Shown one piece after another: positions 14,978-53,991 of a DNA stretch of 64,000 bases. The notes under the pieces were generated by a model that had not been told where the DNA came from, did not search any database, and saw only the letters and a list, made by a program, of their open reading frames with translations. The stretch spans positions 429,926 through 493,925 of the forward strand of contig CAWBEU010000007.1 in assembly GCA_963787975.1 (NCBI GenBank), written 5' to 3'. Position numbers and translations under genes: made by a program. This DNA comes from an uncultured Thermoplasmata archaeon (GTDB taxonomy: Archaea; Thermoplasmatota; Thermoplasmata; Lutacidiplasmatales; UBA184). Every line of letters starts with the position of its first letter. Positions within the stretch are counted from its first letter, which is position 1.

Positions 14978-15832
14978 TCATCCGGGCGCGTCGATCCGGA
15001 ACAGGGCCCGCGCGTTCTCGCCGAGGATCAGATCCTTGTCCTCCGCGGGAAGGTCGAGGCCGGTGATCAGGCCCACCGCGGTCTCGATGGACTCAAGGGG
15101 CCAGTCGGAGCCGTAGAGCACCCGATGCGCGTCTCCCATCGCGGCGATAGCGTTCGCGAGCCGGCGCTGGGCCCGACCCACCATCTCGCGGTAGTAGGGC
15201 ACCGCCGGGTTGGCGAGCAGTCCCGAGGTATCCGTGTACACGTTGGAATTCTTGTAGACGACTTCGGCCAGCTCCTCGACCCACGGGTTCCCGAGATGGC
15301 AGAGGACGAAACGCACGTCGCGGAACCGAACCGCGACCTCGTCTGCCTCGAGCGGACGGGCGTACTTCAGTCGGCCGTTGGGGTCGAGCGTGTCCCCCTG
15401 ATGGATCATCACCGGGATGCCCGACTTATGCGCGAACTCGTACACGGGATGGAGACGCGCGTCGTGCGGGTAGAACGACTGATAGCCGGGATACAGCTTG
15501 ATCGCGACGAGGTCGCGTACGCGCTCCCAGGTCTCCACCGTCTCACGGACGGCCGCTTCGCCCTTCGTAGGGTCCACCGTGACCGTCCTCAAGAGCCGGC
15601 CCCCGCTCTTCGTGAACATTTCTTCCCCCTCCCGAAGAACTTCGGTCGGGCTCGGATTAGAGTACAGCTGGAGCAGGATAGCGAACCCGATCGACTGAGC
15701 ATCCAGCTCGCGCAACAGGGAAGGAACCGTGAATTCGAGGTCGGGTCGATACGAGTTACGTTGGAGATCCGGCCAGGTACGGGCTCAGGTGGACGTGGAC
15801 GTCGACTCGACGCCCCAACGGGAGGACGGGCA
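14978..15832 (-). CDS. Amidohydrolase-2 (ACMSD-like TIM-barrel metal hydrolase) paralog with an apparent frameshift between its N-terminal HxH region and the body
   Basis: The body (14978..15715) aligns to the downstream paralog from LLREMDAKGIG onward. The expected N-terminus LPLGRRVDVHVHLSPYLAGS is encoded just upstream (about 15766..15832) in a different frame. Confidence 0.6.
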
Positions 15833-15867
15833 CGGCGGTCGCTAGGCGGCGGAGCTTACCAACCTTT

Positions 15868-16725
15868 TCACCGGGCGCCGCCTTCCGGAAGCCCGAGGAG
15901 CTCCCGCGCGTTGCCCCCTAGAATTCGCTCCTTGTCCGGTCGAGGGAGGTCGAGCCCCTCGACCAGTCCCACTCCGTCGGCGATCGAACTGATCGGCCAG
16001 TCGGATCCGTAGAGGATCTTCGTCACGTCGCCGACGGCCAAGATCGCGTGGTGCAGGCGCGTCCGCATGCGTCGGACCTGGGCGTCATAGCGCTCGGCGA
16101 AGGGGTTCAGCAAACCCGAGGTGTCGGTGTAGACGTTCTCGTTCTTGTAGGTGACCTCCGCCGCTTCCTCCATCCAGGGATTTCCGACGTGGCACAGAAC
16201 GAAACGGACCGAGCGCCAGCGCACGGCCACCTCGTCCAGGAAGATTGGCCGGGCGAACCGGATCAATCCGTCGGGGTCCGCTGTATCCCCTTGATGGACC
16301 CAGACGGGAACGCGTTGTTGCTCCGCCCACCGATAGACCGGTTCGAGCCGCGAGTCCGTCACGTCGAAGGGAAGGTATCCCGGATACAGCTTGATTCCAC
16401 GGAGACGGGGTTGGTTCTCCGACCACAGCTTGACCGCATGCGCCACCTCGGCCTCCCCGCGGGTCGGGTCCACCGTTCCCGTAGGAAGCAGCCGGCCTTC
16501 GCTGGTCGTGGCCACCTCGGAGACGTTCTTCAGTCCGTCTTCGAGCGTGGGAGCCAGCCTCGGACCGAGAAAAACTCCCCAACCGATCCCCTTCGCGTCC
16601 ATCTCCCGGAGAAGGCCGGAGGGGCTGTACTCGATTCGGTTCTTTTCCGCGAAGGTGGCCCCGTGCAGGGAGTAACGGCTGGGGTGGACGTGGACATCCA
16701 CTCGCGGACCCAGTGTCGAGGGCAT
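15868..16725 (-). CDS. Amidohydrolase-2 family metal-dependent hydrolase (intact paralog)
   Basis: 285 aa. VDVHVHPS (HxH metal-binding motif), YPGYLPFD, VWVHQGD and the C-terminal GSDWP motif are typical of the Amidohydro_2 / ACMSD family. Confidence 0.75.
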   Translation of the reverse strand: MPSTLGPRVDVHVHPSRYSLHGATFAEKNRIEYSPSGLLREMDAKGIGWGVFLGPRLAPTLEDGLKNVSEVATTSEGRLLPTGTVDPTRGEAEVAHAVKLWSENQPRLRGIKLYPGYLPFDVTDSRLEPVYRWAEQQRVPVWVHQGDTADPDGLIRFARPIFLDEVAVRWRSVRFVLCHVGNPWMEEAAEVTYKNENVYTDTSGLLNPFAERYDAQVRRMRTRLHHAILAVGDVTKILYGSDWPISSIADGVGLVEGLDLPRPDKERILGGNARELLGLPEGGAR

Positions 16726-16838
16726 GCTATCTCGTGGATTGCATCGAACGGAAAACAGCTCGTCCCAGGCGGAACGGGAACCGCCGACGGCTTGATATCG
16801 CCCGAGGGTGTCCTGCGCCTATCCCCAGAGGAATTCCG

Positions 16839-18335: not shown

Positions 18336-18412
18336 CCCCGGCGCGCGAGCGCCGTCGGGGGCTATTTGTAGTCCACCGACTCTCGACGCGTAGCCCTATC
18401 CGACCTGACCGG

Positions 18413-20539: not shown

Positions 20540-21745
20540 CTACCGTCTCTTGGGCTTCCCCGCAGGCCCGGGTGCAGCGGCCTTCCCCGCGAGGAGTTCC
20601 TCGTGGATCGCCACGCCTCGTTCGGCGAGCAACGGGATAAAGGGGGTGGGGTCGAGCGTCTCGGGCGAGTGCATTCCCGGCGCCCGGACCTGTCCGGTCG
20701 CGAGCAGCAACGCCCCTACCGCGCCCCCGGTGCCCGTGAGGTAGGCTGTGCCCGTGGCCCCGTACTTGCGCGCCGCCTCGGGGTGACTGATCAGGGTCGA
20801 TAGCCGCAGACGGCGCGCGGCGCCGTCCTTCAGGCCGTCGACCTCGACGACGAGTGCCGCCGAGCCCTCCACCTTGCCGGTGAGGTCGGCGGGCTTGGGA
20901 ATGACGTTGAGGATGGCCTTCCGGGCCGCCACGCGGTCCGGCCGGTCGTTCCCGAAGATCTGGAGGTCCTGGAAGGTCTGGAGGATCCGGACCGTCCGGT
21001 CGTCGAGGGCGAGTTTGAAGTCGACGTACTGGACCCCCTTCCCGATGAATCGGGGGAGGGTGTCGACTTCCTCGTGGTCGACCTCGTAGACGGGCTGGGG
21101 TCCGACCGGCGACGGAAAGGAGTACTGCTCGAACCCCCCGAACGGGGGGACCGGGGTATAGGCACCGTTCTTCCAGATACGCGAGGAGTTGAGGGTCTCG
21201 CCGATGAACGTCTCCGGGCTGAAGAGGCAGATGAACGGAAACTCTGGACTCGAGGCGGTGTCCCCGTCGCGGATCCGGATGGCATCGACCGAGTCCATCT
21301 GGTCGGCCCCGTAACGAGCGAACACGTTGCTCAGGCCGGGATCCTCTCCCATGCCGATGATCGCGGGCACGCCGGCGGCTTTCCACTTGCCGTCGTCCAC
21401 GAACGGGTCGCTGGACGCGGAGGCCAGGTCGACGTAGGCGACCCGGCCTTCCCGCGCTGCCGCCATGAGGATATTGTTGAACCGGGGGATCGTCGCGTTG
21501 ACGAGGACGTCCGCGTCCTTGACGAACGCAGCCACGGCAGCGGCGTCTCCGGCATCGAGGCCGACGCCCTTGGCCCGGGATCCTGGCAAGCCGGCCGCGA
21601 CGCTCTGAGCGAGGGGAGCGTCCAAATCGGCGAGCACCAGTTCCCGGATGGCCGAACTCGCGACGAGATGGCGGGCGATGACCTGCCCGACCGCTCCGCA
21701 ACCGACCTGGACTACCTTGGCGCCCTTGGTGGGAATACTACCGAA
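20540..21745 (-). CDS. Saccharopine dehydrogenase-like NAD(P)-binding oxidoreductase; start codon unresolved
   Basis: Body is ORF 20540..21637. Upstream in frame the Rossmann segment IPTKGAKVVQVGCGAVGQVIARHL is encoded with no ATG/GTG/TTG before an in-frame TAA, so the start may be an ATT or masked by an error. Confidence 0.65.
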   Translation of the reverse strand, partial: FGSIPTKGAKVVQVGCGAVGQVIARHLVASSAIRELVLADLDAPLAQSVAAGLPGSRAKGVGLDAGDAAAVAAFVKDADVLVNATIPRFNNILMAAAREGRVAYVDLASASSDPFVDDGKWKAAGVPAIIGMGEDPGLSNVFARYGADQMDSVDAIRIRDGDTASSPEFPFICLFSPETFIGETLNSSRIWKNGAYTPVPPFGGFEQYSFPSPVGPQPVYEVDHEEVDTLPRFIGKGVQYVDFKLALDDRTVRILQTFQDLQIFGNDRPDRVAARKAILNVIPKPADLTGKVEGSAALVVEVDGLKDGAARRLRLSTLISHPEAARKYGATGTAYLTGTGGAVGALLLATGQVRAPGMHSPETLDPTPFIPLLAERGVAIHEELLAGKAAAPGPAGKPKRR

Positions 21746-23750: not shown

Positions 23751-23849
23751 GGGTTCGAACCAGTCCGGGCGCTGGTTTTCGCCCTATCCTCCCCCCCCTG
23801 ATATAGCCTCGCTCGCGGGGAAACCGAGGTCGTTTCCGGCCGCGGATTC

Positions 23850-25436
23850 TATACGGGTGCAGAGAGTTGCGCCGGCGCGCTGCCGCCGCTCCGGGCTGCG
23901 TTCCAATCCGCCAGGATGATCTGGGCCGCGTTGTGGCCCGGAGCGCCCAAGACCCCGCCCCCTGGATGGGTAGCGCAACCGCACAGGTAGAGCCCCGGAA
24001 GGGGGGTACGGGTACGAGGTCCAGCCCGGGACCGGCCGGAAGGAGAACAGCTGGTCCGGCGTGATGTCGCCCTGGTCGATGTTCCCCCCGGTCATCCCCA
24101 GGAGGTTCTCGATGTCCTGCGGGGTCACGACCTGCCAGTGCAGGACGGTTTGCCGGATGTCTGGCGCGTACTCCTCGATCGTATCGAGCACGGTCTCGGC
24201 CACGTGGGACCGGGCGTCATTCCAGTCCATTCCCCGAAGCTCCGTGGGCGCATACTCCACGAAGCACGTCATCGTGTGCTTGCCCGGGGGCGCGACGGAC
24301 GGGTCCAGGATGCTCTGGTGGTAGATGTCGATGTACGGCCGGTGAGAGAAGCGTCCATACTTCGCGTCATCGTAGGCCCGCTCGAGGTAGTCCATCGACG
24401 GGGCGATGTCGAGCGCCCCCGCCAGGCGCGAGGGGTCGGCGGCGGCCCGATAGTGCGGGAGCCGGTCCAACGCCGCGTTGAACTTGAGGCAGGCCCCCTC
24501 GTTCCGGATCTTCTTCACCCGGAGACGGAATCCCAGGTCCACGGCATCTTCTGGTAGCAGTCGAAAGAAGGTCTGCTTGAGGTCGAGGGAGGAGACGATG
24601 ATCGGCGCCCGATGGACCTCCCCGGTCTCCGTCTCGACCCCGACGGCCCGACCCGCCTCGACCAGGATCCGCCGCACGCCGGCGCCGGTCCGGATCTGCG
24701 CGCCGTAGTGCGTCGCGGCTCGGGCCATCGACTGCGTGATGTTCCCCATGCCCCCCTCGGCGATCCCCCAGATCCGGCGGTGACCTTCCAGGATCCCCAC
24801 GCTGTTGTGGGCGAGGATGTAGGCCGTGCCCGGCGTCCTCGGGCCCGCCAAGGTCCCGATGATCGACCCGGAGGCGAGGACGCCCTTGAGCTCCTCCGAC
24901 TCGAACCAGCCGTCCAACAGGTCGGCGGCGCTCTGGAGAAACAGGTCCTTGAGCACCTGCTGGGGGTCGCTCCCCGTCCAGTGGCTCAGCATCTCTCCGA
25001 GCGGCACCGGAGGGGCGAGGAGGATCGGCTCGATCTGGTCCATGATACCGTCCCACCAGGCGAGGTACTTGGGATAGGCCTCGGCGTCCTTCTTCGAGAA
25101 CCGGGCGATCTCCTTCTCGGTCTTCTCCTCGTTCACCCAGAAGGTCAGCGAACGGCCGTCGGGGAATGGCGCGAACCCCTGCGGGTCGCACAAGATCGGC
25201 CGGTAGCCGAACCGCTTGAGCTCGAGCTCCTCAACGATCTTCGGCCGCAGCAGTCCCGCGGCATACCCGAAGGTGCTGAGGCGGTAGCCCGGCCACGGCT
25301 CCTCCGTGACGGAGGCGCCCCCGACGATTCCGCGCTTCTCGAGGACCAGCACGCGCGCGCCGGCCCGGGAAAGGTAGCCTGCCGTGACGAGGCCGTTGTG
25401 CCCCGCGCCGACCACGATCGCGTCGAACTCGGCCAT
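23850..25436 (-). CDS. PYROXD2/CrtI-like FAD-dependent (amine-oxidase fold) oxidoreductase, paralog 1; +1 frameshift near 23990-24000
   Basis: [16 protein letters not shown] Rossmann start. The frame breaks at GWTSY|[30 protein letters not shown]: an extra C in taccc-g shifts the conserved C-terminus into another frame, with stop near 23850. Confidence 0.75.
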
Positions 25437-29699: not shown

Positions 29700-31371
29700 C
29701 GTGCGACCACTGGGGGCTGCGGGCGCTCATGCTCCACCCCTATCGTCCGGTATGTGAGGGGGCGGGATCCAAGGTCCTCGAGCACGGCGTGCGCGGCGTT
29801 GTGGCCCGGAGCCCCCATCACACCACCGCCGGGATGTGCCGTTGCTGCGCACAGGTACAGTCCAGGCACGGGAGTCCGGTAGCCCGACCAACCGATGAGG
29901 GGCCGGAACCGAAAGATCTGATCCGGGCTCATGTTGCCTTGGAAGATATTCCCCCCGGACAGCCCCACCGTGCGTTCGATATCCACCGGAGAGATGATCT
30001 CCGAATGTTCAACGGTCCTCCGTATCTCGGGGGCGTACTCCTCGAGCGTCCGCAGCACGATCTCCGCGGCTTCGGGCCGGAAATCGTCCCACGTCGTTCC
30101 TCGCAGCTCGTAGGGAGCGTATTGCACGAAACAGGTCATCGTATGCTTGCCGGGGGGCGCCATCGACGGGTCGGCGGCGCTCTGGAACAGGATGTCCATG
30201 TACGGTCGCTCAGAGAAGCGGCCGTACTTCCCCGCGTCATAGGCGCGCTCGAGGTACTCCATGGAGGGGGCGATCTCCACCTCCCCCTTGTGCGGGCCGC
30301 CCGGGCCGGCCCAGGCGGAGAACCTTGGAAGCCCGTTCAACGCCGCATTGAACTTGAGGGAGGCGCCGTCGCTCCGGAACTTCCGGACCCGATCGAGTTC
30401 CCGGTCGGGTAGAACGTCGGGGGGAGGAGCTTCAGCACGGTCTGCCGGACGTCGAGCGCTGACAACACCACGCGGGCCTCTATCTGCTCTCCTGACTCGG
30501 TCTCGACGCCCACGGCCCGTCCGTCGTGAATCCGCACCTGGCGGACCCCTGTCCGGACTCGAATCGTCGCCCCGAAGTGTTCAGCCGCGCGCGCCATCGC
30601 CTCGGTAATCCGCCCCATGCCCCCGACGGCGAACCCCCAGGCCTGCCGTACTCCGTCGAGGACGGTGGCATTGTGGTGCGCGAGCACGTAGGCGGTTCCC
30701 GGCGTTCGGGGGCCGCACATCTCTCCGATGAGTCCGTTGATCGCCAAGGACGCCTTCAGCTGGTCGCTCTCGAACCATCCGTCGAGAAACTCCTCCACGC
30801 TGAGGAGAAACAGGTCGCGCAGAAGTTCGTCGATCCCTTGGCTCTCGAACTGGGCGAGGAGTTCCGGAAGCGGCGCGGGCGCTCGGAGGAGCAACGGCTC
30901 CAGAATGTCCAGGGTGCGCTCCCAGTACTCCACGTACCGAGGGTACGCCTGGGCGTCGCGCCGGGAGAACTTCGCAATCTCGCGCAGGGTGGCCTCCTCG
31001 TCGCTCCAGACGGTCAGCGATCGACCGTCCGGAAACGGACAGAATTCGGCCGGCGCGCAGGGGAGAGTCCGGAATCCGAACCTCCGAAGCTCCAGATCGT
31101 CGATGATCTCCGGTCGCAGCATGCCCGCGACGTAGGAGTAGGTATTGATCCGGAACCCTGGCCACGGCTCCTCGGTCACGCACGCCCCGCCCACGTGATC
31201 CTGCCGCTCGAGCACGAGGGTCCGGAGCCCGGCTTTGGCGAGGTAGCCGGCGGCGACCAGGCCATTGTGCCCTCCGCCCACTATCAGGGCGTCGTAGCTC
31301 TCCATCCGCGAAGGAGCAGAGGAAGAAGGGGATAGGTCTTCTCGCGCACCACGTCCCGCGACTTGAACCAC
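29700..31371 (-). pseudogene. PYROXD2/CrtI-like FAD oxidoreductase, paralog 2: split by a frameshift in a C6/C7 run near 30385 and lacking an in-frame stop after the conserved C-terminus
   Basis: N-half 30337..31371 ([16 protein letters not shown]) ends in junk. The correct continuation LLPPDVLPDRELDRVRKFRSDGASLKFNAALNGLPRFSAW is in another frame. The C-half (in ORF 29003..30340) reads through AVLEDLGSRPLTYR... for about 230 codons into the aminotransferase gene. A 1-nt change in cccgccccc would restore a stop. Confidence 0.6.
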
Positions 31372-33105: not shown

Positions 33106-33955
33106 ATGGACCCGATCCTGCTCGGGGTCCCGTGGGACGCCACCACTCTCGGTCGCAAGGGGGCTCGCCTCGCACCGGCCGCTATTCGGGAGGAGCTTCG
33201 GCGCCGGCTTCACCCGTACGACGCAACTGCAGGTCGGACGGTTCGTTGGGAGGATGCGGGAGACGCATCCATTGGTCCCACCCACGACGAGATGCTCGAG
33301 GGCGTGAGCGCCGCCGTGTCCGACCGGTGGAAGGCGGGTGCCCGACCGGTGATCGGTCTCCTCGGCGGCGACCATGCCGTCGCGTACGCCGGGATCCGGG
33401 CGGTCCGGCGCCTTCTTTCCGAATCTCATGGTCATTAGCCTGGATTCGCACCTCGACCTGCGGCCTCGAGACCAGGGCCCGTCCAACGGAAACTGGGCGC
33501 TTCGCATGATCGAGGACTTTCAACGGCCGCTGGTGGAGTTCGGCCGAGGACGTTTCTCGAATGACGAGGAGTTGTTTGAGACGGCCCGGAAGGGGGGCGT
33601 CCACCTCGTGTCCGCGAGCGATCTCCGTCGGCAAGGGGTGTCGCGGGCGGTGGAGCCGGTGGAGGCGACGACCCGGAAGGATCGCGACGTGTGCCTGTCC
33701 ATCGATATCGACGTGGTCCACCAGGCGGCCGCTCCGGGTGCGACCGCTCCATCGGTGCATGGTATCCCGGTCGAGGACCTCTTGGACCTTCTCGATTGGG
33801 CCTCCCGGCGGTTCCGCGTGCGGGCCTTCGACGTCTGCGAGGTCAACCCCCCAGTCGACCCGACCGGGGTGACTGCTCGACTGGCCGGCTACGTAACGCT
33901 GAGCCTCCTGTCGGGACTCGCCCCGGCGGCTGGGAGATCCCCCGCCGGAACCTGA
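33106..33955 (+). CDS. Arginase/agmatinase/formiminoglutamase-family ureohydrolase, with frameshift near 33395-33415
   Basis: ILLGVPWDATTLGRKGARLAPAAIR and GGDHAVAY are in the frame of ORF 32962. PNLMVISLDSHLDLR and SIDIDVVHQAAAPGATAPSVHG (Mn-binding DAHxD and SxDxDxxDP motifs) are in the frame of ORF 33374. Confidence 0.65.
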
Positions 33956-33967: not shown

Positions 33968-35680
33968 TTAACCGGGCGTCCGCAATGGAGATTGGTGCAG
34001 GTCCGTGAGGATTACCTGGGCCGCGTTCCGACCGGGAACGCCCGTGACCCCGCCTCCCGGATGGGCCGACGAACCGCACAGGTAGAGGCCGGGGAGCGGC
34101 AGCCGGTAGCCACTGGCGCCCGGGAAGGGACGTAGCGAGAACATCTGGTCGGGCGTCAGGTCCCCATGGAAACAGCTCCCGCCGGTCATCCCGAGAGTGG
34201 TCTCGATGTCCTCCGGCGTGACGACCTGGGCGTGCTCCACGACCTCGCGAATATCCGGCGCATACTCCTCGAGCGTCGACAACACGAGCTCCGCGGCGGC
34301 CGCCCGATGGTCGGCCCAGGTGGTGCCGACGAGCTCCCGTGGTGCGTACTTCACCGAGCAGGTCATGGTGTGATGGCCGGGCGGCGCGACCGAAGGGTCG
34401 ACGGCGCTCTGGAAGAGAACCTCCGCGAAGGGAGGGTCCGACAGGTGGCCCGTCGCCGCCATCGCGTAGGCCCGGTCGAGGTACTCGAGCGACGGGCCGA
34501 TCGTGATCGAGGCTTGGTGGTGAGGGCCGGGCACCTCGGGCCGAGCGGTGAACCGCGGAAGACGCCGAAGCGCCGCGTTGAACTTGAGCGTAGTCGCGTA
34601 GGTCTTGAAGCTACGGACCTGCCGCCGGACCTCCTCCGGCACGGAGTCGGCTGGCGCCAGCCCAAGCAACGTGCGCTTGATGTCGACCCCGGAGGCGACG
34701 GCCCGCGCCTCGATACGGTGACCGGCGACGGTCTCGACGCCGGTCACTCGACCGGCTGCGACCGAGAGCGAGCGCACGCCGACGCCGGTCCGGATCTCCG
34801 CACCGAACCCCTGGGCGGCCCGCGCGAGCGCCTCCGTCGTTCGTCCCATGCCCCCGACCGCGAACCCCCACGCCCCGGCACGCCCCCCGAGCTCGGTGAC
34901 GCTGTTGTGCGCCAGCACGTAGGCCGTCCCCGGTCTCCGGGGGCTGGTGAACGCGCCGACGCACGCGCTGAACCCCAGGGCGGCCTTGAGCTCGTCCGAC
35001 TCAAACCAGTCCGCGAGAAAATCCTCCGCGCTCCGGAGGATCAGGTCGCGCAGAAGCCGCTCGTACTCGGGGCCCCGAAACTGCTCGGCCAGCTCGCGAA
35101 GAGAGGGGGGACTGCCACCCAGGATCGGTTCGAGGAGCTTCAGGATCTCCGTCCAGTGACGGAGGTACCGGGGATAGGCCTCCGCGTCCCGCGGGGAGAA
35201 CCGCGCGATTTCCTTCTGCGTCCGGGCCGTGTCCCCCCACAGCGTGATCGACCGCCCGTCGGGGAAGGGAAGGAATCCTTCCGGGTCATGCGGGATCGTC
35301 CGGTACCCGAGCCGGGACAACCCCAACTCGTCGATCACCTTCGCGCTGAGCATTCCCGCAAGGTAGGCAAAGGTGTTGATCCGGAAGCCCGGCCACGGCT
35401 CTTCAGTGATGCAGGCTCCGCCCACGAACGGTCGCTGCTCGAGTACGACGACCCTCGCCCCTCCCCGGGCAAGGTATGCGGCCGCGGTGAGGCCGTTGTG
35501 GCCGCCTCCGATCACCACGACGTCGTACGTCCGGGCTTCACCTCCCGAAGGTCGGACCGTCGAGCTCAGCCGTAGTTCACCGAGATCAGCTTGACCTCGG
35601 TCATCTCTTCCATCGCGTACCGGAGGCCCTCGCGTCCGAGGCCGCTCTCCTTGACCCCGCCGAACGGCAGTGCGTCCCAC
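33968..35680 (-). CDS. PYROXD2/CrtI-like FAD oxidoreductase, paralog 4 (apparently intact; start uncertain)
   Basis: TYDVVVIGGGHNGLTAAAYL...[41 protein letters not shown]. The ATG at 35680 would overlap the aldehyde dehydrogenase 3' end by about 115 nt, and no nearer canonical start was found. Confidence 0.7.
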   Translation of the reverse strand: MGRTAVRRGQGERPRTRGPPVRDGRDDRGQADLGELRLSSTVRPSGGEARTYDVVVIGGGHNGLTAAAYLARGGARVVVLEQRPFVGGACITEEPWPGFRINTFAYLAGMLSAKVIDELGLSRLGYRTIPHDPEGFLPFPDGRSITLWGDTARTQKEIARFSPRDAEAYPRYLRHWTEILKLLEPILGGSPPSLRELAEQFRGPEYERLLRDLILRSAEDFLADWFESDELKAALGFSACVGAFTSPRRPGTAYVLAHNSVTELGGRAGAWGFAVGGMGRTTEALARAAQGFGAEIRTGVGVRSLSVAAGRVTGVETVAGHRIEARAVASGVDIKRTLLGLAPADSVPEEVRRQVRSFKTYATTLKFNAALRRLPRFTARPEVPGPHHQASITIGPSLEYLDRAYAMAATGHLSDPPFAEVLFQSAVDPSVAPPGHHTMTCSVKYAPRELVGTTWADHRAAAAELVLSTLEEYAPDIREVVEHAQVVTPEDIETTLGMTGGSCFHGDLTPDQMFSLRPFPGASGYRLPLPGLYLCGSSAHPGGGVTGVPGRNAAQVILTDLHQSPLRTPG

Positions 35681-37044
35681 CGCAGCGAAGTGGGGTCGTT
35701 GATGTGGACGCCACCGGCCCGGATCCGCTTGGCGATGGTGAACGCTCGCTTGAGGTCGTTCGTGTAGACCGCCGCCTGCAGACCGTAGGGAGTCCCGTTG
35801 GCGATCCGGATCGCTTCGTCGAGGTCGTGGAACCGCAGGATCGGAACGACGGGGCCGAACGGCTCCTCTTGAGCGACCTTCGATGCGATGGTGACGTCAT
35901 CGAGGACCGTGGGCCGGTAGAAGTACCCCGGGGCCAGTTCCGAGGCCCGCTGACCCCCGAGAAGGATCTTGGCGGAGTGGGACACCGCGTCGCCCACCAG
36001 ACGGTCCATCCGATCCAGCGCCGCGGCGTCGATGAGCGGCCCGACTTGAGTGTCTTCGGAGAGCGCCGGTCCCACCTTCAGCTTCCGTGCGCGTTCGGTG
36101 AAGGCTTGGGCGAATCGGTCGGCGACCACGTCGGAGACCAGCAACCGCTTGGAGGCGGTGCAGACCTGCCCCGAATATCCAAACGCGCCCCGAACGGCCG
36201 CCACGACGGTGAGGTCCAGCGGAGCGTCGTCCAGTACCGATGAACGGGTCCATCCCCCCCATCTCCAGGATCACACGCTTCGCGTGTCGACCGGCCTTCT
36301 CAGCGATGCTTTTCCCGACGACCGTCGACCCGGTGAACGTGATCAGCCGGGTCCGGGGATGCTCGACGAGGGTATCCCCGACCTCTCCCCCGGTCCCACG
36401 ACGACGTTCACCACGCCCTTGGGGAAACCGGCGGCTTCGATGTGTTTCGCGAGCCGGAGGGCCGTCAAGGGGGCGGAGCTTGTCGGCTTGATTACGACCG
36501 GATTGCCGGCGGCCAAGGCGGGAGCCACCTTGTGGGAGAGCAAGTTGAGAGGGAAGTTGAAAGGGCTGATGGCCACGACCACCCCGATCGGGTCTCGCAC
36601 CGAGAAGAGGAACCGTTGCTCGTTGCCGGCGGGATAGACGTACGCGTCGGCGGGGAATGACTCGCCGGTCAGGTGGCGGGCCTCGTCCGCGGCGAGTTGG
36701 TAGACCGTCACGGCACGGGTCGCCTCGACCCGCGCGTCGACGATTGGCTTTCCGACCTCCTGGGCAATGAGCCGGGCCATTCCCGCACTGTCGGCCAGAA
36801 GTCGGTCTGCGAGCGCGCGCAGCAGCCGGGATCGTTCGTGGATCGGTGTCGTGCCCCACGACTCTTCCACGGCGGCGGCCGCGTCGACCGCGGCCGACGC
36901 CTCCTCGCGAGAGGCTACCGAGACGCGGCCTAGTCGGCCGCCGGTCGACGGGTCATGGACCTCTTGCCACCGGTCGGACCTGGACGGAGTCCATTCCCCG
37001 CCGATGAAGAGCAGACCCGTCTCCCCGGACTCTGCCGATGCCAT
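35566..37044 (-). CDS. NAD(P)-dependent aldehyde dehydrogenase interrupted by two 1-nt indels (about 36350 and 36237)
   Basis: N-terminal third in ORF 36343..37044. Middle GTGGEVGDTLVEHPRTRLITFTGSTVVGKSIAEKAGRHAKRVILEMGGMDPF in the frame of ORF 35897..36859. C-terminal VLDDAPLDLTVVAAVRGAFGYSGQVCTASKRLLV... in ORF 35566..36204. The indels are a G-run deletion (gtggg-acc) and a g insertion (atcg-g-tactg). Confidence 0.65.
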
Positions 37045-37066
37045 GACTCCCCGCGCCGGCGGGTCC

Positions 37067-38563
37067 TCAGCCGGGGTCGCCGTAGACGGTGTAGTGCCAG
37101 CTCTTTCGCGCCTGGCCCGTCAGGTCGATGTAGAGGTTCTTCACGACGGTGTAGTCGTTGAGCGAATCCGCGCCGAGGTCCTTCCCGAAGCCGGACTGCT
37201 TGAAGCCGCCGTGCGGCGTCTCCGAGCCCAGCGGCAGGTGGTCGTTGACCCACACATCGCCGAACCGGATAGCGTTCGCGGCGCGGAGCGCGGTGCGCAC
37301 GTTCTGAGTCCAGACGCTGCCCGCGAGGCCGTAGTCGACTCCGTTCGCTATCTCGATGGCCTCGTCGAACTTCTCGAACTCGATCACGTCCAAGACCGGC
37401 CCGAAGATCTCCCGCTGAGCGATCTCCATGTCCGGCGCCACCTGGTCGAAGACCGTGGCGTTGACGAAGGCGCCCTGCTTGAGCTTCCCGCCGGCCTCCG
37501 TGCCGCCGATCCGCAGCTTCGCGCCCTCGCTCTTGCCTTTCTCGACCCAATCGAGCACCTTCTTCTGGTGGCTCGCGTGGACGAGTGGACCCAGGTCCGT
37601 GGACCGGGAAGAGGGGTCGCCGACGCGGACCTGCTTGACCCGCTCCAGCAGTCCCTTCTCAAACTTCTCGCGCACCGACTTGTGGATGATGATCCGGGTA
37701 GCCGCCGTGCAGTCCTGACCCCCGTTCACGTAGCCGCCGACGATGGCTCCCTCGACTGCCGCCGGGATGTCCGCGTCCTCGAAGACGATGAACGGCGCCT
37801 TACCCCCGAGCTCGAGCTGCACGCGCTTCACGGTGCTGCTCGCCGCTTCCATGATCTTCTTGCCGGTCTCTGTGTCGCCCGTCAGGGAGACCATGTCGAC
37901 CTTCGGATTGACGCAGAGCTCGTTCCCGACCTCCGGACCTGGCCCGGTGACGATGTTCAGCACGCCGGAGGGCAGCCCGGCCTCGGTGAACGCCTTGCCC
38001 AGCTCGAGCGTGCTGAGAGGGGTCCAGCTGGCCGGCTTGAGGATGACCGTGTTGCCCGTGACGAGCGCCGGTCCGATCTTCCAAACCGCCATCATGAATG
38101 GGTAGTTCCACGGAGTGATCGACCCGATGACTCCTACCGGCTCCCGCCGGAAGATCGTCGTGCCGTCGCCAAGGAATTCCTGGGGGCTCTTCGCGTCGAG
38201 CGTACGGACCGCTCCGGCGTAGAAGATCAGGTTGTCAATCGAGCCCGGGATGTCAACGTCCGCGGCCTGCTTGATGGTCTTGCCCTGGTTCCGGCTCTCG
38301 AGGTCGGCGATCATGGCGGCCCGGGATTGGAGGATCTGGGCGGCCTTGAGGTAGACCTCGCCCCGCGCACGAGCGGACAGACGCGGCCAGGGCCCCTTGT
38401 CGAAGGCGTCCCGTGCGGCGTCGATGGCCTTCCGGATATCCTCGCGGGTTCCCTTCGGAACCTCCCCGATGGACTTCCCCGTGAACGGGCTCACAACGGA
38501 GATCGTCCCCTCGGACGAAGATTCCACCCACTCGCCTCCGACCAGCATCTTAGAGGTTGCCAT
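37067..38563 (-). CDS. NAD(P)-dependent aldehyde dehydrogenase (intact; betaine-/aminobutyraldehyde-DH-like)
   Basis: MATSKMLVGGEWVESS start. Carries ITPWNYPFMMAVWKIGPALVTGNTVILKP, ELGGKAP, the catalytic Cys in GQDCTAATR, and EIFGPV. Confidence 0.85.
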   Translation of the reverse strand: MATSKMLVGGEWVESSSEGTISVVSPFTGKSIGEVPKGTREDIRKAIDAARDAFDKGPWPRLSARARGEVYLKAAQILQSRAAMIADLESRNQGKTIKQAADVDIPGSIDNLIFYAGAVRTLDAKSPQEFLGDGTTIFRREPVGVIGSITPWNYPFMMAVWKIGPALVTGNTVILKPASWTPLSTLELGKAFTEAGLPSGVLNIVTGPGPEVGNELCVNPKVDMVSLTGDTETGKKIMEAASSTVKRVQLELGGKAPFIVFEDADIPAAVEGAIVGGYVNGGQDCTAATRIIIHKSVREKFEKGLLERVKQVRVGDPSSRSTDLGPLVHASHQKKVLDWVEKGKSEGAKLRIGGTEAGGKLKQGAFVNATVFDQVAPDMEIAQREIFGPVLDVIEFEKFDEAIEIANGVDYGLAGSVWTQNVRTALRAANAIRFGDVWVNDHLPLGSETPHGGFKQSGFGKDLGADSLNDYTVVKNLYIDLTGQARKSWHYTVYGDPG

Positions 38564-38721
38564 ACGAATCGCCGGGGAGCGCCAGCCCGCCACGGTAAAA
38601 GATGTTATCCCAGGGAAACCGTCCTATCGCCCTCTCACCGTTGGGGAGTGGCGCCCGGGCCCCCATCCTAGGGTTTAAGAACGGGGTCCCCCTCTTCGCG
38701 CCGACCGTTGGGAGGGGTTCG

Positions 38722-40723: not shown

Positions 40724-41821
40724 CTACGCTGCGGTCGTCCCCACGAGGTGGCTTCCCGGCGCGATCGGCGACGGGGCCCCGCTCCCTTCCATGGCCATCA
40801 GGGTCTCTGGCGGGATGTCGACCACCTCCTCGGCGCGGTGGCAGGCCGCCAGGTGGGTCGGGTCCTTGCCAATGCTCCGGAGGAGGGGCTCCTCCACCCG
40901 GCACCGGTCGATGACGAACGGGCAGCGCGTGGCGAACCGGCAGCCCGGCGGGGGCCGGATGAGCGTCGGGATCTCCCCCGAGATCCGGAATCGGGCCCGC
41001 CGGCGCCGGACGTCCGGCACCGGCAGCGCCGCCAGGAGCGCCTTGGTGTAGGGATGGGTCGGATGCTCGAGTACAGCGCGGACGGTCCCGACCTCGGCCA
41101 GCTTCCCCAGGTAGAGGACCGCCACCCGGTCGGCAACGTACTTGACGGCCGAGACGTTGTGCGTGATCAGGAGGTACGCGAAGCCGAACTCGGACTGGAG
41201 CGCGACCAGCCGGTTCAGGATCTGGGCCTGCACGGCGACGTCCAGCGCGCTCGTCGGCTCGTCGAGGACGATGAGCTTGGGACGCAAGCTCAGCGCCCGC
41301 GCCAGGGAGAGCCGCTGCCGCCCGCCACCGGAGAACTCGTGGGGGTACTGGTCGAGGATCTCCGGCATCAGCCCGACGGTCGGAAGCAGCTCCGCGACCC
41401 GCCGGCGGAGCTCCGCTTTCCGGAGACCGGGCTCCTGGGCCCGGATTGGCTCGCTCACGATCTCCCAGACCCGCATGCGCGGGTCGAGCGACCCGACCGG
41501 GTCCTGGAACACCACCTGGACGTTCCGGCGCCATGCGCGGAGCTTCGAGCCCTGGAGGTGGGCTACGTCCTGTCCCTCGAACAGTATCCGGCCGCTGGTC
41601 GGCTCGTGGAGCCGGGAGATGAGCCAGCCGAGCGTGGTCTTGCCGGAGCCGGACTCGCCGATGAGGCCCACGGTCTCGCCGGGGCGAACGTCGAAAGAGA
41701 CGCCGTCCACGGCCCGGATCGCGAGCTTCGCGTGGCCCCGGATCGTTTCGCTGAGCGACCGCGTGAGCGGGAAGTATTTCTGGATATCCTCGACCTGAAC
41801 GAGGGGTTGGGCCGCGCTCAT
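40724..41821 (-). CDS. ABC transporter ATP-binding protein, DppF/OppF-like
   Basis: Walker A GLIGESGSGKTT, signature FSGGGRQRLSLARAL, Walker B LIVLDEPTSALD. C-terminal oligopeptide-ABC extension. Confidence 0.85.
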   Translation of the reverse strand: MSAAQPLVQVEDIQKYFPLTRSLSETIRGHAKLAIRAVDGVSFDVRPGETVGLIGESGSGKTTLGWLISRLHEPTSGRILFEGQDVAHLQGSKLRAWRRNVQVVFQDPVGSLDPRMRVWEIVSEPIRAQEPGLRKAELRRRVAELLPTVGLMPEILDQYPHEFSGGGRQRLSLARALSLRPKLIVLDEPTSALDVAVQAQILNRLVALQSEFGFAYLLITHNVSAVKYVADRVAVLYLGKLAEVGTVRAVLEHPTHPYTKALLAALPVPDVRRRRARFRISGEIPTLIRPPPGCRFATRCPFVIDRCRVEEPLLRSIGKDPTHLAACHRAEEVVDIPPETLMAMEGSGAPSPIAPGSHLVGTTAA

Positions 41822-45501: not shown

Positions 45502-47089
45502 TCAGCTCCCCGACGAAGGAGGGGACGGCGTGGCGCCCGACGTCCTGCGCCAGTCCTCCAAGATGATCTGGGCGGCGTTGTGACCGGCGGCACCCGTGAC
45601 CCCGCCGCCGGGGTGGGCGGCCGAACCGCAGAGGTACAGGCCGGGCAGAGGGGTCCGGGACCTGCACCCACCCCGGCACAGGCCGGAAGGAGAGGATCTG
45701 GTCCGGCGTGATATCTCCCTGGAAGATGTTGCCGCCGGTCATCCCGAGGGTGCTCTCGATGTCCTTCGGCGTGACAACCTGCCAGTGCTCGACGACCCGC
45801 CGGATGTTCGGGGCATACTCCGCGATCGTATCCAGCACCCGCTCCGCCGCGGTGCTCTTGTAGGAATCCCAGTCGGTCCCGCGCAGCTCCGTCGGGGCGT
45901 ACTGGACGAAACAGGTCATCGTGTGCTTCCCCGGGGGAGCGACGGACGGGTCGAGCGCGCTCTGGAACAGCATCTCGATGAACGGCTGGGAGGAGAACCG
46001 GCCCTCCATGGCGTCGCGGTACCCCCGCTCGAGATACGCCAGCGACGGGGCGATGTCGACGGTCGAGCGATGGGCATCGCTCGGAGCGCCCGGGTCCGCC
46101 GTGAACTCCGGTAGCGCGGACAGCGCCGCATTGAACTTGAGGGCGGCGCCCCGGGAACGGATGCCCCGAACCTCCTTCTCGAACTCCGGGGAGAGGGAAC
46201 CGGGGGGCGCCAGCTTGAGGAACGTGGTCTGGGCGTCGGCGTTCGACGCCACGATCGGGGCCGAGATCGTCTCGCCCGACACCGTCTCGACCCCCGTGAC
46301 GGCCCCGTGCTGGACCACGAAGTTCTTTACGGCTACTCCGGTGCGAATCTGAACGCCGTTCGCGACGGCGGCCCGGGCCAGCGCCTGGGTGATCCCGCCC
46401 ATCCCGCCCACGGAGAACCCCCAGACTTGCTTGTGCCCATCGAGGTTGCCCACGTTGTGGTGGGCGAGGACGTAGGCGGTGCCGGGGGTGCTGGGACCGC
46501 ACATCGTTCCAATGACGGCGTTGGGCGCGAGGACGGCCTTGACCTCGTCGGACTCGAACCACTCATCGAGCAGGTCCTGCGCGCTGCGGAGGAACAGGTC
46601 CCGGACCACGGTCTCGGTCTCGGGCGTGGAGAACATCTGAAACATCTCGGCCAGCGGCGCCGGCGGGGCCAGCATCACCGGCTCGATCAGCTCGAGCACG
46701 CGGTCCCAATACTCGACGTACTTCGGATAGGCGCGAGCGTCCTGCACGGAGAATTTGGCGATCTCCTTCGCCGCGCGCTCCGTGTCGACCCACAGCTTGA
46801 GGGCCCGGCCGTTCGGAAACGGCATGCAGTACTGCGGGTCGTAGAGGATCGTGCGATACCCATACTTTGGGAGCTCGAGGTCGTCGACGATCTCCTGGCG
46901 CATCAATCCCGCCACGTAGGAGAAGGTGTTGATCTTGAACCCGGGCCACGTCTCCTCCGTGATCGCCGCGCCACCCACCACGGGCCGTCGTTCGAGCACG
47001 AGGACGCGGGCCCCCGCCCGTCCGAGATAGTTGGCTGCGACCAGTCCGTTGTGGCCCCCGCCGACTACGACGACGTCCCACTGGCTCAC
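45502..47089 (-). CDS. PYROXD2/CrtI-like FAD oxidoreductase, paralog 5; +1 frameshift near 45610-45616
   Basis: [16 protein letters not shown] start. The frame breaks at GWVQV|[36 protein letters not shown] (extra C in gtccc-gg), the same alignment position as in paralog 1. The corrected stop falls at about 45502, directly before the cupin ATG. Confidence 0.75.
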
Positions 47090-48942: not shown

Positions 48943-48953
48943 GTGCCTTATTC

Positions 48954-50783: not shown

Positions 50784-50785
50784 CG

Positions 50786-53014
50786 ATGGCCGATCCGGTC
50801 GATCCCCCCGTCGAACCTTTGCGACGGGTCACCTCCGTTGACAGCCGGGCACCCATTCTGCTCACCGGACTTTCGGCAGCGGCCGTGCTGGGAGCCGCCG
50901 GCGAATCTTCTCTCATCCGCGAAACCCGCGGCGCCGACATGGACTGGGGGGGCGTTTACGGAGAGGGCGTCCGGCTTACTGGGCCGTGGTGGATCCGGTT
51001 CGGAGATCCTCGAGCACCCCGCGGCACGCTCTCCGAGAGCTTGGTCGGGTTGGAATCGTCCCGGACGCGCGTCGTGAGCCACCACGAGGCAGGTCCCTTC
51101 CACTGCGACCAGGAGATCGTGGCGCTGGCAGAACTGCCAGGAGTCGGGCGCCGGTTGACGTTCGCGAACCCCACCGACTCCGCGACCTCCCTCCAAATCG
51201 CGGCGACCTTCCGTCCTGAGCTGGCGCCGGTTCTGATCGAGGGAATCAAACCGTTCGAGTACGAGGTCGTCCGCACTCCCGCGGGGCTCCGGGTCACCGC
51301 GTTCGGTTCCGCATTGGAGTTCGGAACGACCGGTCCGACCACGGGATTCCGGCTGAACGAACAACCGTGGGACGGTCGCCATTACCGTGGCGCGCTCGAC
51401 ACCGTCACCGTCGAGTCGACGATGGCGCTGCCCCCCGGGCAATCGGCGACGGTGTCGTGCGTGATCTGGGGCGGGGTGGAGACCACTGTCCGCACCCATC
51501 CCGAACGAACGTCCCAACTCCTCGGATTCGCGGATCGCTGGGCGGCCACGGCGGATGCCGCCCGGGGGGAATGGACGGCCCGGACCCCCCGGCTCCGGCT
51601 GCCGGATGCGCCAGACCTAGAGCGCGGTTACCTCCTGGCCCGGGACGCGCTCCGTAGTCTCTATTTCGCGCCCGAGCCCGGATTCGTAGGACTCGTGGCC
51701 GGGTATCCATGGTACGCAGCGCTCTGGTGCCGGGACCTCGCGTGGATGCTTCCCGCCGTCCTCTGGCTGGGCGACTCACCCTGGGTGGCGACCTCGCTCC
51801 GGTCCGTGTTCCGATTCCAGGCCCAAGCTCCTCTTCCCGTGCTGGGCGGCGCGGCCGGGGAGCTGCCCATGCAGATCGGACCGGGTCCGATCTTTCTCTA
51901 CGGGACCTCCGATACGACGCTCTACTACCCAGAGCTCTTGCGTCGCTATCTCGCCCATACGGGCGACGAATCGCTGGTCCGGGAGCTGTCGCACCCGCTC
52001 CAGCTCACCGAGCAGTGGGCCCGGAGGAAGACCAACCCGTCGACGGGATTGATCCGCAACGGCGACGAGGGCGCCGGGTTGCAAGAGGCCGCCGCGGAAC
52101 ACGGTCGCGTCCACTACGGCTTCGACGCGTACGACACCACGATCTGGGACTCGACGGACCGGCGTTCCCACGCGGTGGATATCCAGGTGCTCTGGGCCGA
52201 GGCGCTCGCCGCTCTCGGTGAGCTCGCCCCGGTCATGGGGCTGGGGGCCGAGGGCCCTCGTTGGCAGGCGGAGGCACAGAGTCTGCGCGAGACGATCGCG
52301 ACTCGCTACTGGTGGGCGGACGAGAACTATCTCTACGATTCTCTCGCCGAGGATGCCACTCCGGTACGGAAGATTCGGCCGAACGCTCTCCTGGCCGTCG
52401 CCGGGGGTCTGCTTCCGAGGGATCGGGCCACTGCGGCCGTGGATCGCGCGGCACGGGCCGATCTCGCCACCGACTGGGGCTACCGTACCCTCTCGTCTGC
52501 GGATCCAACCTACAATCCCATCTCCTATCACGATGGCCAGGTCTGGCCCATCGCATCCGCGTGGGCGATTGCGGCGGCGTTTGCTGCCGGACAGATCGCG
52601 CGAGCCGTCGACGGCCTGCGTCGCTGGGCTCGGCAGTTAGACCAGGAGGCCGGGATGCTGAACGAGTGCTACCGGGGGGATCGCGCGGAGCCGTTCAATT
52701 CCTGTTTCCTGCTCGGCTTCAGTGTCGCTCCCTTCCTGACGCAGCTTTTCGAGGGTCTGTGGGGGCTACGGCCGCGGGCTCGGGAGCGGGTCCTGTGCGT
52801 GGAACCTCACTTCCCTGCGGACTGGACTCGGGCCACCCTCGAAGGTCTCTCGCTGTTCGGTGGCGAGGTGACCCTGAGGTGGGAGCGCCCCCGATTGACG
52901 GTGGGCTGGCGGGGCGCTGGTTCCCTATCGGTTCAGGGCGGTACCCACACGCTCGAGCTCGCCGATGGGGGTTCCGGGACTCTCGAGTACGGCGCGGCTA
53001 CGAACACGTCTTAA
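50786..53014 (+). CDS. Amylo-alpha-1,6-glucosidase / glycogen-debranching-enzyme-type (alpha/alpha)6-barrel glycoside hydrolase
   Basis: ATG at 50786 (MADPVDPP); the upstream part of track ORF 50528 is junk. GYPWYAALWCRDLAW and YHDGQVWP match GDE_C/glucoamylase-type barrel motifs. Confidence 0.7.
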   Translation: MADPVDPPVEPLRRVTSVDSRAPILLTGLSAAAVLGAAGESSLIRETRGADMDWGGVYGEGVRLTGPWWIRFGDPRAPRGTLSESLVGLESSRTRVVSHHEAGPFHCDQEIVALAELPGVGRRLTFANPTDSATSLQIAATFRPELAPVLIEGIKPFEYEVVRTPAGLRVTAFGSALEFGTTGPTTGFRLNEQPWDGRHYRGALDTVTVESTMALPPGQSATVSCVIWGGVETTVRTHPERTSQLLGFADRWAATADAARGEWTARTPRLRLPDAPDLERGYLLARDALRSLYFAPEPGFVGLVAGYPWYAALWCRDLAWMLPAVLWLGDSPWVATSLRSVFRFQAQAPLPVLGGAAGELPMQIGPGPIFLYGTSDTTLYYPELLRRYLAHTGDESLVRELSHPLQLTEQWARRKTNPSTGLIRNGDEGAGLQEAAAEHGRVHYGFDAYDTTIWDSTDRRSHAVDIQVLWAEALAALGELAPVMGLGAEGPRWQAEAQSLRETIATRYWWADENYLYDSLAEDATPVRKIRPNALLAVAGGLLPRDRATAAVDRAARADLATDWGYRTLSSADPTYNPISYHDGQVWPIASAWAIAAAFAAGQIARAVDGLRRWARQLDQEAGMLNECYRGDRAEPFNSCFLLGFSVAPFLTQLFEGLWGLRPRARERVLCVEPHFPADWTRATLEGLSLFGGEVTLRWERPRLTVGWRGAGSLSVQGGTHTLELADGGSGTLEYGAATNTS

Positions 53015-53027
53015 GGCTGCACCGGCC

Positions 53028-53991
53028 GAGCGCGCCGTGACGGCAGCCATCGAGGTGGAGAACCTCTCCAAGGAGTACGGAACTCTCCATGCGGTAGACG
53101 GAATTAGTTTCCGTGTCCCCGTCGGCGCCGTCTTCGCCTTTCTGGGGCCCAACGGTGCGGGAAAGACCACCACGGTCGAGATCCTCGAGGGGTTGCGCCG
53201 GCGGGGCGGAGGCACGGTCACCGTGCTCGGCCTGGATCCGTGGACCGATGGGCGCCGGCTCCACCCACGGATCGGGGTAATCCCGCAGGAATTCCGTTTC
53301 TTCGACAAGATCACCCCTCGAGAGGCGATCCAGGTACTACGCCGCACTGTTCGACCAGAAGGTCGACGTGGACCGGTTGCTCGAACGGGTGGTGCTCTCC
53401 GACAAGGCGACGGATCGCTTCGAGACCCTCTCCGGGGGTCAGAAGCAGAAACTTGGCCTCGCGCTGGCCTTGGTGAGCAACCCAGAGCTGCTCTTCCTCG
53501 ACGAGCCGACCACGGGGTTGGACCCGCAGGCCCGGCGAGCCATCCGCGACGTGATCCGGTCGCTCCACTCCGAGGGCAAGACAATCTTCCTCACCACACA
53601 CTATCTGGAGGAGGCGGAGCTTCTCGCCGACCAGGTCGCGATCATCCATCACGGTCGCATCATCGCCGACGGAACCTCCAGCGCCATCATCTCGCAGTTT
53701 GGTCACCCACCCCGGCTCCGCCTTGAAGGGTCGGCGGCCCTTGCCGAAATCCTCCGTCGCACGGTGGCCCGACCCGTCACGTTTAACGAAGGCATGATCG
53801 ACGTGGAGATCCGGACCTCCGACGACGTGCTTCCTGTGCTTACCGAGGCCCAGGCGAGTGGACTGCCCTGGTCGAATCCGACCACCGTCCGCGATTCCCT
53901 CGAAGACGTGTTCGTCCGGCTAGTGGGAGAAATGGACGAAGGAGAGGTCCGGGCCCCTCCCCTTCCGGCCGGCCCGGGAAGCGCTCGATGA
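53028..53991 (+). CDS. ABC-2-type exporter ATP-binding protein, with a 1-nt insertion (cag-g-tac) near 53338
   Basis: Walker A GPNGAGKTT in the frame of ORF 52965. Expected AIQYYAALFDQKVDVDRLLERV with signature LSGGQKQKLGLALAL and Walker B LLFLDEPTTGLD in the frame of ORF 53368. Likely GTG start at 53028. Confidence 0.7.

Follow-up and report, generated by a model that had tools for sequence, protein, structure and literature searches.

The window analyzed here is a 64,000-nucleotide stretch of a 500,241-bp contig from a MAG of an uncultured soil Thermoplasmata archaeon. Seven coding sequences of the window are broken by nine single-base indels when it is compared with the sister assembly GCA_049581265.1. 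The affected genes encode an Amidohydro_2 paralog, three CrtI/CrtO-like FAD oxidoreductases (1, 2, and 5), an arginase-family protein, an aldehyde dehydrogenase, and an ABC ATPase (Table 1). Each of them is called at full length in the sister assembly, and apart from the indels the broken genes are identical to their intact sister genes. The positions at which the breaks had been placed in an earlier note, which was prepared by reading the window by itself (15766–15832, 23995, 29745, 30385, 33400, 36237, 36350, 45612, and 53338), lie within 0–50 bp of those determined here. The note also held that the breaks are fresh and that the downstream frame continues the protein, and this agrees with the identity of the genes to their sister copies and with GC3 periodicity, which carries on past each break in the shifted frame. 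Because the periodicity is kept, there is no decay downstream of the breaks.

Table 1 Genes of the window discussed in the text and their differences from the sister assembly. Lengths of the seven frame-broken genes are those of the products in the sister assembly.
Gene	Position	Strand	Length (aa)	Feature or change in the window	Codon
PF01555 N6/N4 DNA methyltransferase	13063-13926			profile match; candidate modifier	
Amidohydro_2 paralog	14978..15833	-	284	extra G at 15776, CCAGTAC>CCAGGTAC; frame lost	~20
Saccharopine-DH-family gene	20540..21736	-	398	ATT start at 21736-21734	
FAD oxidoreductase 1 (CrtI/CrtO-like)	23849..25436	-	528	one extra base at 24010, GTACGGTAC>GTACGGGTAC	~476
FAD oxidoreductase 2	29727..31305	-	526	deletion at 30418, G7>G6; deletion at 29763, G4>G3, native stop lost	~296; ~515
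Arginase/agmatinase-family gene	33106..33955	+	282	extra G at 33410, CCGGCCC>CCGGCGCC	~102
Aldehyde dehydrogenase	35566..37044	-	492	extra C at 36237, CAGTACG>CAGTACCG; deletion at 36386, C6>C5	~270; ~220
FAD oxidoreductase 5	45502..47089	-	528	complex change at 45659-45661, GGTACTG>GGGACCTG (one substitution and one extra base)	477
GDE_C/MGH1-like glycoside hydrolase	50786-53014	+		compensating +A/-T at 50905..50907, GATCTTT>GAATCTT; two residues altered, frame kept	
ABC-2-type transporter ATPase (ABC_tran)	53037..53991	+	317	extra G at 53333, CCAGTAC>CCAGGTAC	~99

The frame breaks were checked by three-frame translation and by base-level comparison with the sister assembly, which is made of short contigs (JBAURQ010000154.1, ...163.1, and ...126.1 were used). 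The comparison covers positions 1–60020 of the window (approximately 59.8 kb), over which the identity is about 99.95% (99.93–99.96% per alignment). The segment 60020–64000, outside the comparison, contains ETF alpha and ETF beta domains without sign of truncation in a Pfam scan; the ETF-alpha gene is located at 60105–61166. When the cupin, aminotransferase, and SBP genes were looked up, the sister assembly was the only match. For the ORF at 38602–40701 on the plus strand, a product match was obtained with the ATG start at 38722; no exact product match was obtained for the frameshifted FAD oxidoreductase 5 or for the ETF-alpha gene. Logan assemblies of two read sets, SRR28062071 and ERR12036785, provided further alleles; the SRR28062071 contigs and the sister assembly probably derive from the same reads and are therefore not fully independent, and ERR12036785 covers a single variant site (15776). 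Orthologs were taken from L096 (a JGI strain, 93% identical), L097 (83%), L010 (another species, approximately 81%), L011, and L014. The best of the GTDB hits had 87% amino acid identity.

The Logan assemblies of both read sets contain the intact allele at every site that they cover. The contigs of SRR28062071 carry the intact or sister allele at 15776, 53333, 5355, 8250, 8771, and 10502; the extra base at 15776 is absent from the contigs of both read sets, and that at 53333 is absent from the SRR28062071 contig L006. The comparison with orthologous loci that the earlier note had proposed gives a single reading frame at all the sites covered, which are all except 15776, 45660, and 53333. FAD oxidoreductase 1 is single-frame in L010, L011, L014, and L097, the arginase/agmatinase-family gene in L010 and L097, and the aldehyde dehydrogenase in L010 and L096, while the L096 ortholog of FAD oxidoreductase 2 is encoded in one frame over residues 1–526. 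At 15776, 45660, and 53333, it is the sister and Logan sequences that show the intact state.

The consequences of the breaks are visible in protein records. The window ORF of FAD oxidoreductase 1 yields an aberrant 550-residue product (23784–25436), and the aldehyde dehydrogenase is called as two fragments of 233 and 212 residues. The expectation that annotation would split or truncate the genes is thus already realized, with the fragments on record as separate proteins. In a collection of 15 billion proteins, each of the truncated or aberrant products of 550, 322, 233, 212, 207, and 193 residues comes from one contig only, that of 500,241 bp. Among the members shown of their 90% clusters, all others, from NCBI, ENA, JGI, and Logan, are full length, a few partial entries aside.

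The window and the sister assembly differ at 12 indel loci, which include all nine frame breaks, and by nine isolated substitutions. Four of the substitutions are synonymous (8250, 26814, 26817, and 49023), three are non-synonymous, and two are intergenic; those at 26814 and 26817 together form a symmetric CCGG>TCGA change. Four further substitutions, all A/T>G/C, are located at 41034–41070, at the end of a sister contig. Since real divergence at 99.95% identity would consist mostly of substitutions, a list of differences this rich in indels points to error. The presence of some synonymous substitutions indicates that the two assemblies may represent slightly different populations, and some of the indels could be strain differences. 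The indels occur at a rate of approximately one per 5 kb; most of them fall at 15.7–53.4 kb, whereas the first 15 kb contain one and 55–60 kb none.

Some of the differences leave the reading frames untouched. An extra C at 37068 (37066..37070, minus strand) converts CTAGCCGG to CTCAGCCGG where the upstream aldehyde dehydrogenase terminates, so that its stop codon changes from TAG to TGA and the protein is unchanged; the same conversion is found at the intergenic position 5355. The glycoside hydrolase gene contains the compensating pair of changes listed in Table 1. The loci at 37068 and 50905–50907 lie within the span described in the earlier note and were overlooked there because they break no frame. 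Three differences shift the boundary of a run while keeping its length (C4G3>C5G2 at 4814, G3A2>G2A3 at 28128, and the change at 50905–50907), and these are length-preserving mis-segmentations.

The saccharopine-DH-family gene had been counted with the lesions, which brought the number of disrupted coding sequences to at least eight; the breaks are present in seven, and this eighth gene is unbroken. It does lack a canonical start, with no ATG, GTG, or TTG upstream of the Rossmann motif. However, the sister assembly has the same gene sequence, and the ATT start is kept in the orthologs from L010 and L014. Judged from this conservation, the predicted ATT start is not a lesion.

The main sequence context of the errors is a short motif, GTAC/CAGTAC or CTAGCCGG, and not the G/C homopolymer in which the earlier note had placed most of them. 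GTAC is found within 1 bp of seven of the 20 difference events (230 GTAC sites; binomial P = 2e-7), four of the seven are at CAGTAC, and the change CCAGTAC>CCAGGTAC occurs twice. Both CTAGCCGG sites of the sister assembly read CTCAGCCGG in the window (2/2; P = 0.002). Five of the nine frame-breaking indels are at or adjoin GTAC, whereas three (29763, 30418, and 36386) are in G/C runs of at least four, which is also three of the 12 indel loci. Two of the nine breaks are in runs of at least six (G7 and C6); about two of the approximately 70 such runs in the window are wrong, and about 68 are the same in both assemblies. The motif effect is partial: CAGTAC is affected at 4 of its 21 sites and GTAC at 7 of its 230. 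CAGTAC was considered as a deterministic error motif and rejected, because spared sites have the same flanks as those that are hit; the motif is no more than a hot spot. FAD oxidoreductases 1 and 5 are broken at the same Tyr-Arg-Thr position, because these conserved residues are encoded by G-TAC-CGN-ACC, which contains the GTAC motif.

We consider the frame breaks to be consensus errors of the source assembly, with a probability of about 90%; the real genes of the organism would then be intact. The indels occur in a single contig and in no other assembly, and they are associated with motifs. The source is most likely a Nanopore-type long-read metagenome assembly without short-read polishing, where the platform is what we infer; the 500,241-bp contig is deposited in ENA and NCBI and carries no annotation. 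The earlier suggestion of a long-read type of sequencing or assembly error is supported: the sister and Logan contigs carry the intact alleles, the orthologs are single-frame at the sites that they cover, 12 indel loci stand against nine substitutions, the motifs recur, and the truncated products are confined to one contig. The raw signal may be misread systematically at a few contexts, namely GTAC (especially CAGTAC), CTAGCCGG, boundaries of C/G runs, and a few long G/C homopolymers, so that the errors would survive in the consensus. DNA methylation at the motifs is the probable cause of the motif-bound errors.

Most residual errors in Nanopore consensus sequences are frame-shifting indels, and the signal is perturbed by DNA modifications that are specific to a species (PMC8011154). 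The indels of the window resemble these errors in that they are single-base, split genes, and recur at short motifs, in G/C runs, and at run boundaries. Nanopore-only soil MAGs polished with one round of Medaka retain such errors (PMC12313526). Short-read assemblies of the same organism lack the indels, and the contig that contains them, from a soil MAG, is very long, which fits the descriptions of Nanopore-only metagenomes (PMC9262707, PMC12313526). Related Thermoplasmata MAGs from ENA that are included in GTDB are Nanopore MFD bins (PMC12313526), and one GTDB Thermoplasmata MAG from this project, L025, has a frameshift of its own in a gene similar to that of FAD oxidoreductase 1. Unlike in typical Nanopore-type errors, long homopolymers play a minor role in the window (2 of approximately 70 runs of at least six), and GTAC/CAGTAC and CTAGCCGG dominate.

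Genomes rich in pseudogenes and undergoing decay include those of Mycobacterium leprae, host-restricted Burkholderia, and Sodalis. The window is similar to them in having frameshifts in many neighboring metabolic genes with accessory catabolic functions, and the source population might really carry the indels in an amine-catabolism island that is decaying while the sisters remain intact. The fresh state of the breaks and the coding signal kept in the downstream frames are expected of recent pseudogenes, the four synonymous substitutions hint that the window and the sister assembly differ in population, and the lesions are clustered. However, lesions in decaying genomes are common to isolates and are accompanied by substitutions, deletions, and loss of codon bias, without motif-specific repetition of the same indel, whereas those in the window are private to one contig and leave the coding signal untouched. 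At 99.95% identity, nine frame-breaking indels against approximately nine substitutions is a ratio opposite to that of natural divergence. Decay free of selection would not be expected to repeat the same change at the same motif, as happened twice with CCAGTAC>CCAGGTAC and twice with CTAGCCGG>CTCAGCCGG, once between genes and once in a stop codon, or to strike the same codon in two paralogs. The truncated products are found on no other contig in the collection of 15 billion proteins, and at the observed density of indels, if genome-wide, a free-living soil archaeon would lose the function of a large part of its genes. Genuine recent pseudogenization is therefore unlikely, and the decaying accessory island that the earlier note offered as its alternative finds no support in lesions that occur on one contig and that neither the sister nor the Logan contigs show.

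Single-base changes of frame can also be programmed, as in the +1 frameshift of bacterial prfB, the -1 frameshift of dnaX, and the -1 frameshift of archaeal fucA. The genes of the window could similarly be expressed despite their breaks, through ribosomal frameshifting or transcriptional slippage, or vary in phase at homopolymers. In common with programmed sites, the breaks are single-base changes in otherwise conserved ORFs, beyond which the new frame encodes a functional continuation; FAD oxidoreductases 1 and 5 share the broken codon, and two sites are in the G7 and C6 runs. However, programmed sites have slippery sequences and must be conserved among orthologs, whereas the sister assembly, the assemblies of the two read sets, and L010, L096, and L097 encode the proteins in one frame. 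The contexts of the breaks are mixed (GTAC, CCGGCC, G7, and C6), the shifts are both +1 and -1, and there is no common slippery motif. The shared codon of the two oxidoreductases is accounted for by the GTAC motif, and the other long G/C runs, unchanged between the assemblies, speak against phase variation. Programmed frameshifting at the codon of FAD oxidoreductases 1 and 5 was rejected, as the sister assembly and the orthologs lack it, and recoding or phase variation in general is highly improbable. It is equally improbable that the window is right and the short contigs of the sister and Logan assemblies are wrong. The sister assembly does contain clear errors, the four A/T>G/C changes at one contig end; however, its alleles give full-length, domain-complete proteins in seven of seven genes, matching the orthologs of other species. 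Two assemblers and two read sets concur, and single-base indel errors are rare in short-read assemblies away from contig ends.

If the breaks are consensus errors, as we favor, annotation of this MAG would count seven genes of an amine/polyamine-type catabolic cluster among its split genes, truncated genes, or pseudogenes. Such scoring would understate the metabolic capacity of the organism and inflate the counts of hypothetical proteins. The whole MAG needs short-read or homology-based polishing before claims of gene loss or decay are made. The errors reveal nothing new about the biology of the archaeon, and the modest lead that they offer is the error hot spots as candidate methylation motifs. 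The miscalls bound to CAGTAC/GTAC and CTAGCCGG, together with the CCGG>TCGA change at 26814/26817, could be the footprint of a methylome in which GTAC, CTAG, and perhaps CCGG are modified, possibly by the PF01555 methyltransferase; we regard this reading as tentative. A restriction partner of the methyltransferase was sought in the convergent 315-residue ORF at 13923–14870, which has no significant Pfam or NCBIfam match. If the reading were true, methylation motifs and the specificity of a restriction-modification system could be deduced from the error pattern of an assembly alone.

The frame breaks are real but almost certainly artefacts of assembly, as an earlier note on this DNA had preferred to read them, and their biological interest is low. 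Six lines of evidence converge on sequencing or assembly error: other assemblies, orthologs, the difference spectrum, motif recurrence, the lack of decay and the uniqueness of the lesions. Genuine recent pseudogenisation is left with a probability of about 0.06. The G+C content of the window is 63–70%, which makes raw lists of open reading frames uninformative; however, a frame plot of third-position GC and three-frame translation show that each of the genes named in the note switches frame mid-sequence, with the homologous continuation in another frame. The Amidohydro_2 paralog encodes VDVHVHLSPY in one frame and the remaining protein in another. In FAD1 and FAD5, two CrtI/CrtO-like FAD oxidoreductase paralogs, the C-terminal motif ending HPGGGV has moved into another frame. 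A third paralog, FAD2, contains two shifts, one mid-gene and the second 11 codons upstream of the stop; the aldehyde dehydrogenase (ALDH) also has two, and the arginase-family gene and the ABC ATPase have one each. Codon periodicity is unaltered downstream of every break, and therefore there is no decay.

Exact-product look-ups placed neighbouring intact proteins of the window in MAGs labelled 'Thermoplasmata archaeon', on contigs of up to 500,241 bp, and identified a near-identical sister assembly, GCA_049581265.1 (contigs of 45.6, 19.1, and 6.1 kb). The sister and Logan contigs, the latter assembled from read sets, jointly span positions 1–60020 of the window at 99.93–99.96% identity. The complete difference list contains 12 indel loci, nine of them gene-destroying, and nine isolated substitutions, which is the reverse of natural divergence at 99.95% identity. 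The nine indels match the previously reported breaks, whose positions were off by 0–50 bp. Only seven coding sequences are broken, and not at least eight as had been claimed, because the saccharopine dehydrogenase (DH)-family gene is the same in the window and the sister. Two indel loci of the span, at 37068 in a stop codon and the compensating pair at 50905–7, had been overlooked because both leave the frame unharmed. Four further A/T>G/C differences are crowded into 37 bp at the point where sister contig JBAURQ010000126.1 ends; here it is probably the short-read sister assembly, and not the window, that is in error. All seven sister proteins are full length (Amidohydro_2, 284; FAD1, 528; FAD2, 526; arginase family, 282; ALDH, 492; FAD5, 528; ABC ATPase, 317 residues) with complete Pfam and NCBIfam domain matches.

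Differences from the sister assembly and features discussed in the text (window positions unless stated)
Feature	Position	Strand	Remark
Indel loci	5355, 15776, 24010, 29763, 30418, 33410, 36237, 36386, 37068, 45659–61, 50905–7, 53333		
Isolated substitutions	4814, 8250, 8771, 10502, 12182, 26814, 26817, 28128, 49023		
Sister contig-end differences	41034–41070		
Pro-kumamolisin activation domain ORF	7741–12144	+	1467 aa
PF01555 N6/N4 DNA methyltransferase	13063–13926	+	287 aa; family match
ORF convergent with the methyltransferase	13923–14870	-	315 aa
Saccharopine-DH-family gene	20540–21736	-	orthologs L010 14937–16130, L014 4395–5585

The intact allele at 15776 is present in Logan assemblies built directly from both read sets, SRR28062071 and ERR12036785, and the SRR28062071 contigs carry the sister allele at 53333, 5355, 8250, 8771, and 10502. 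A 93% identical JGI contig encodes FAD2 residues 1–526 and ALDH residues 148–492 in a single frame, as do contigs L097 and L010 from other strains or species for FAD1, the arginase-family gene, and ALDH. The prediction that automated annotation would split these genes is borne out: the window gives truncated or aberrant products of 550, 322, 233, 212, 207, and 193 residues, each recorded from one contig only, that of 500,241 bp. The remaining members of the 90%-identity clusters, from NCBI, ENA, JGI/IMG, and Logan, are full length with few exceptions, which are partial (283, 319, and 169 residues).

GTAC lies within 1 bp of seven of the 20 difference events, with 230 GTAC sites in 60 kb (binomial P = 2e-7), and is the site of five of the nine frame breaks. 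Four of the seven GTAC-linked events are at CAGTAC, two of them with the identical change CCAGTAC>CCAGGTAC. FAD1 and FAD5 share the position of their break (codon 476/477 of 528) because the conserved Tyr-Arg-Thr, encoded G-TAC-CGN-ACC, supplies the motif in both; in FAD2 a glycine precedes the tyrosine (GWSGYRTP) and there is no break there. The octamer CTAGCCGG is a second hot spot: both sister occurrences read CTCAGCCGG in the window, one intergenic (5355) and one inside the stop codon at 37068. Three substitutions (8250, 8771, and 10502) fall in the Pro-kumamolisin ORF, two of them non-synonymous and directly 5' of GTAC. Others are run-boundary shifts typical of signal mis-segmentation (C4G3>C5G2 at 4814 and G3A2>G2A3 at 28128). 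The context is not mostly G/C homopolymers, as had been proposed: of the frame breaks, only those at 29763 (G4), 30418 (G7), and 36386 (C6) lie in runs of at least four, and of some 70 G/C runs of at least six across 60 kb, the two assemblies disagree in only about two.

Genuine recent pseudogenisation is very improbable: the recurrence at motifs and the indel-to-substitution ratio speak against it, the lesions are private to one contig, and the implied genome-wide lesion load is implausible. Programmed frameshifting or phase variation would by definition be conserved, but the breaks are not, and the orthologs are single-frame at the sites they cover. That the window is correct and the sister in error is contradicted by the orthologs, by the full-length domains that the sister alleles restore, and by two assemblers and two read sets that give concordant results.

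The residual systematic errors of Nanopore consensus sequences are frame-shifting indels, and species-specific DNA modifications perturb the signal (PMC8011154; also PMC9262707, PMC11649196). Few homopolymer errors together with motif-specific miscalls match this published picture. Nanopore-only soil MAGs polished by a single Medaka round have been put unannotated into ENA (PMC12313526), and several related GTDB Thermoplasmata MAGs are bins of this kind. The length of the window's contig, its ENA origin and its lack of protein accessions suggest that it may derive from that data set or a similar one. One of the related long-read bins (L025; MFD09222.bin.2.31, contig_43959) has a frameshift of its own: at L025 9504–9507 a FAD1-like gene is split over two frames at TCGACCGGGAC, in a CC(C)GGG context, so that related public MAGs may well contain consensus errors of this kind.

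The sole lead worth noting from the artefact is that DNA methylation in this uncultured archaeon may underlie its hot spots, GTAC/CAGTAC, CTAG, and possibly CCGG. At 26814 and 26817, sister CCGG is replaced by TCGA in the window, a symmetric pair of synonymous changes with C>T on each strand, which could be a modified-cytosine miscall or a genuine variant. The PF01555 methyltransferase could be responsible for methylating the motifs; it may be an orphan or half of a restriction-modification pair, and the adjacent convergent 315-residue ORF has no significant family match in Pfam or NCBIfam.

The span 15868–53991 encodes five CrtI/CrtO-like FAD oxidoreductase paralogs, two Rieske GbcA-like oxygenases, three class-III aminotransferases, two saccharopine-DH/carboxynorspermidine-synthase-like proteins, two aldehyde dehydrogenases, an agmatinase/formimidoylglutamase-like protein, two Amidohydro_2 proteins, and Opp/Dpp-type ABC transporter components (two SBP_bac_5 binding proteins, two permease pairs, and one ATPase pair). 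The span appears to be an island for the uptake and catabolism of amines, polyamines, or osmolytes in a soil Thermoplasmata archaeon. The saccharopine-DH-family gene indeed lacks a canonical start, as the earlier note had remarked, with no ATG, GTG, or TTG before its GxGxxG Rossmann motif; however, window and sister are identical here, and this is a genome feature rather than a lesion. The gene appears to start at the annotated ATT, a candidate conserved non-canonical archaeal initiation codon. The ATT and the following residues are kept in the L010 and L014 orthologs (~84% identity), the N-terminus I(P/S)T(K/Q)(G/S)AKVVQVG is common to three Thermoplasmata lineages, and a G-rich stretch lies 8–12 nucleotides 5' of the ATT.
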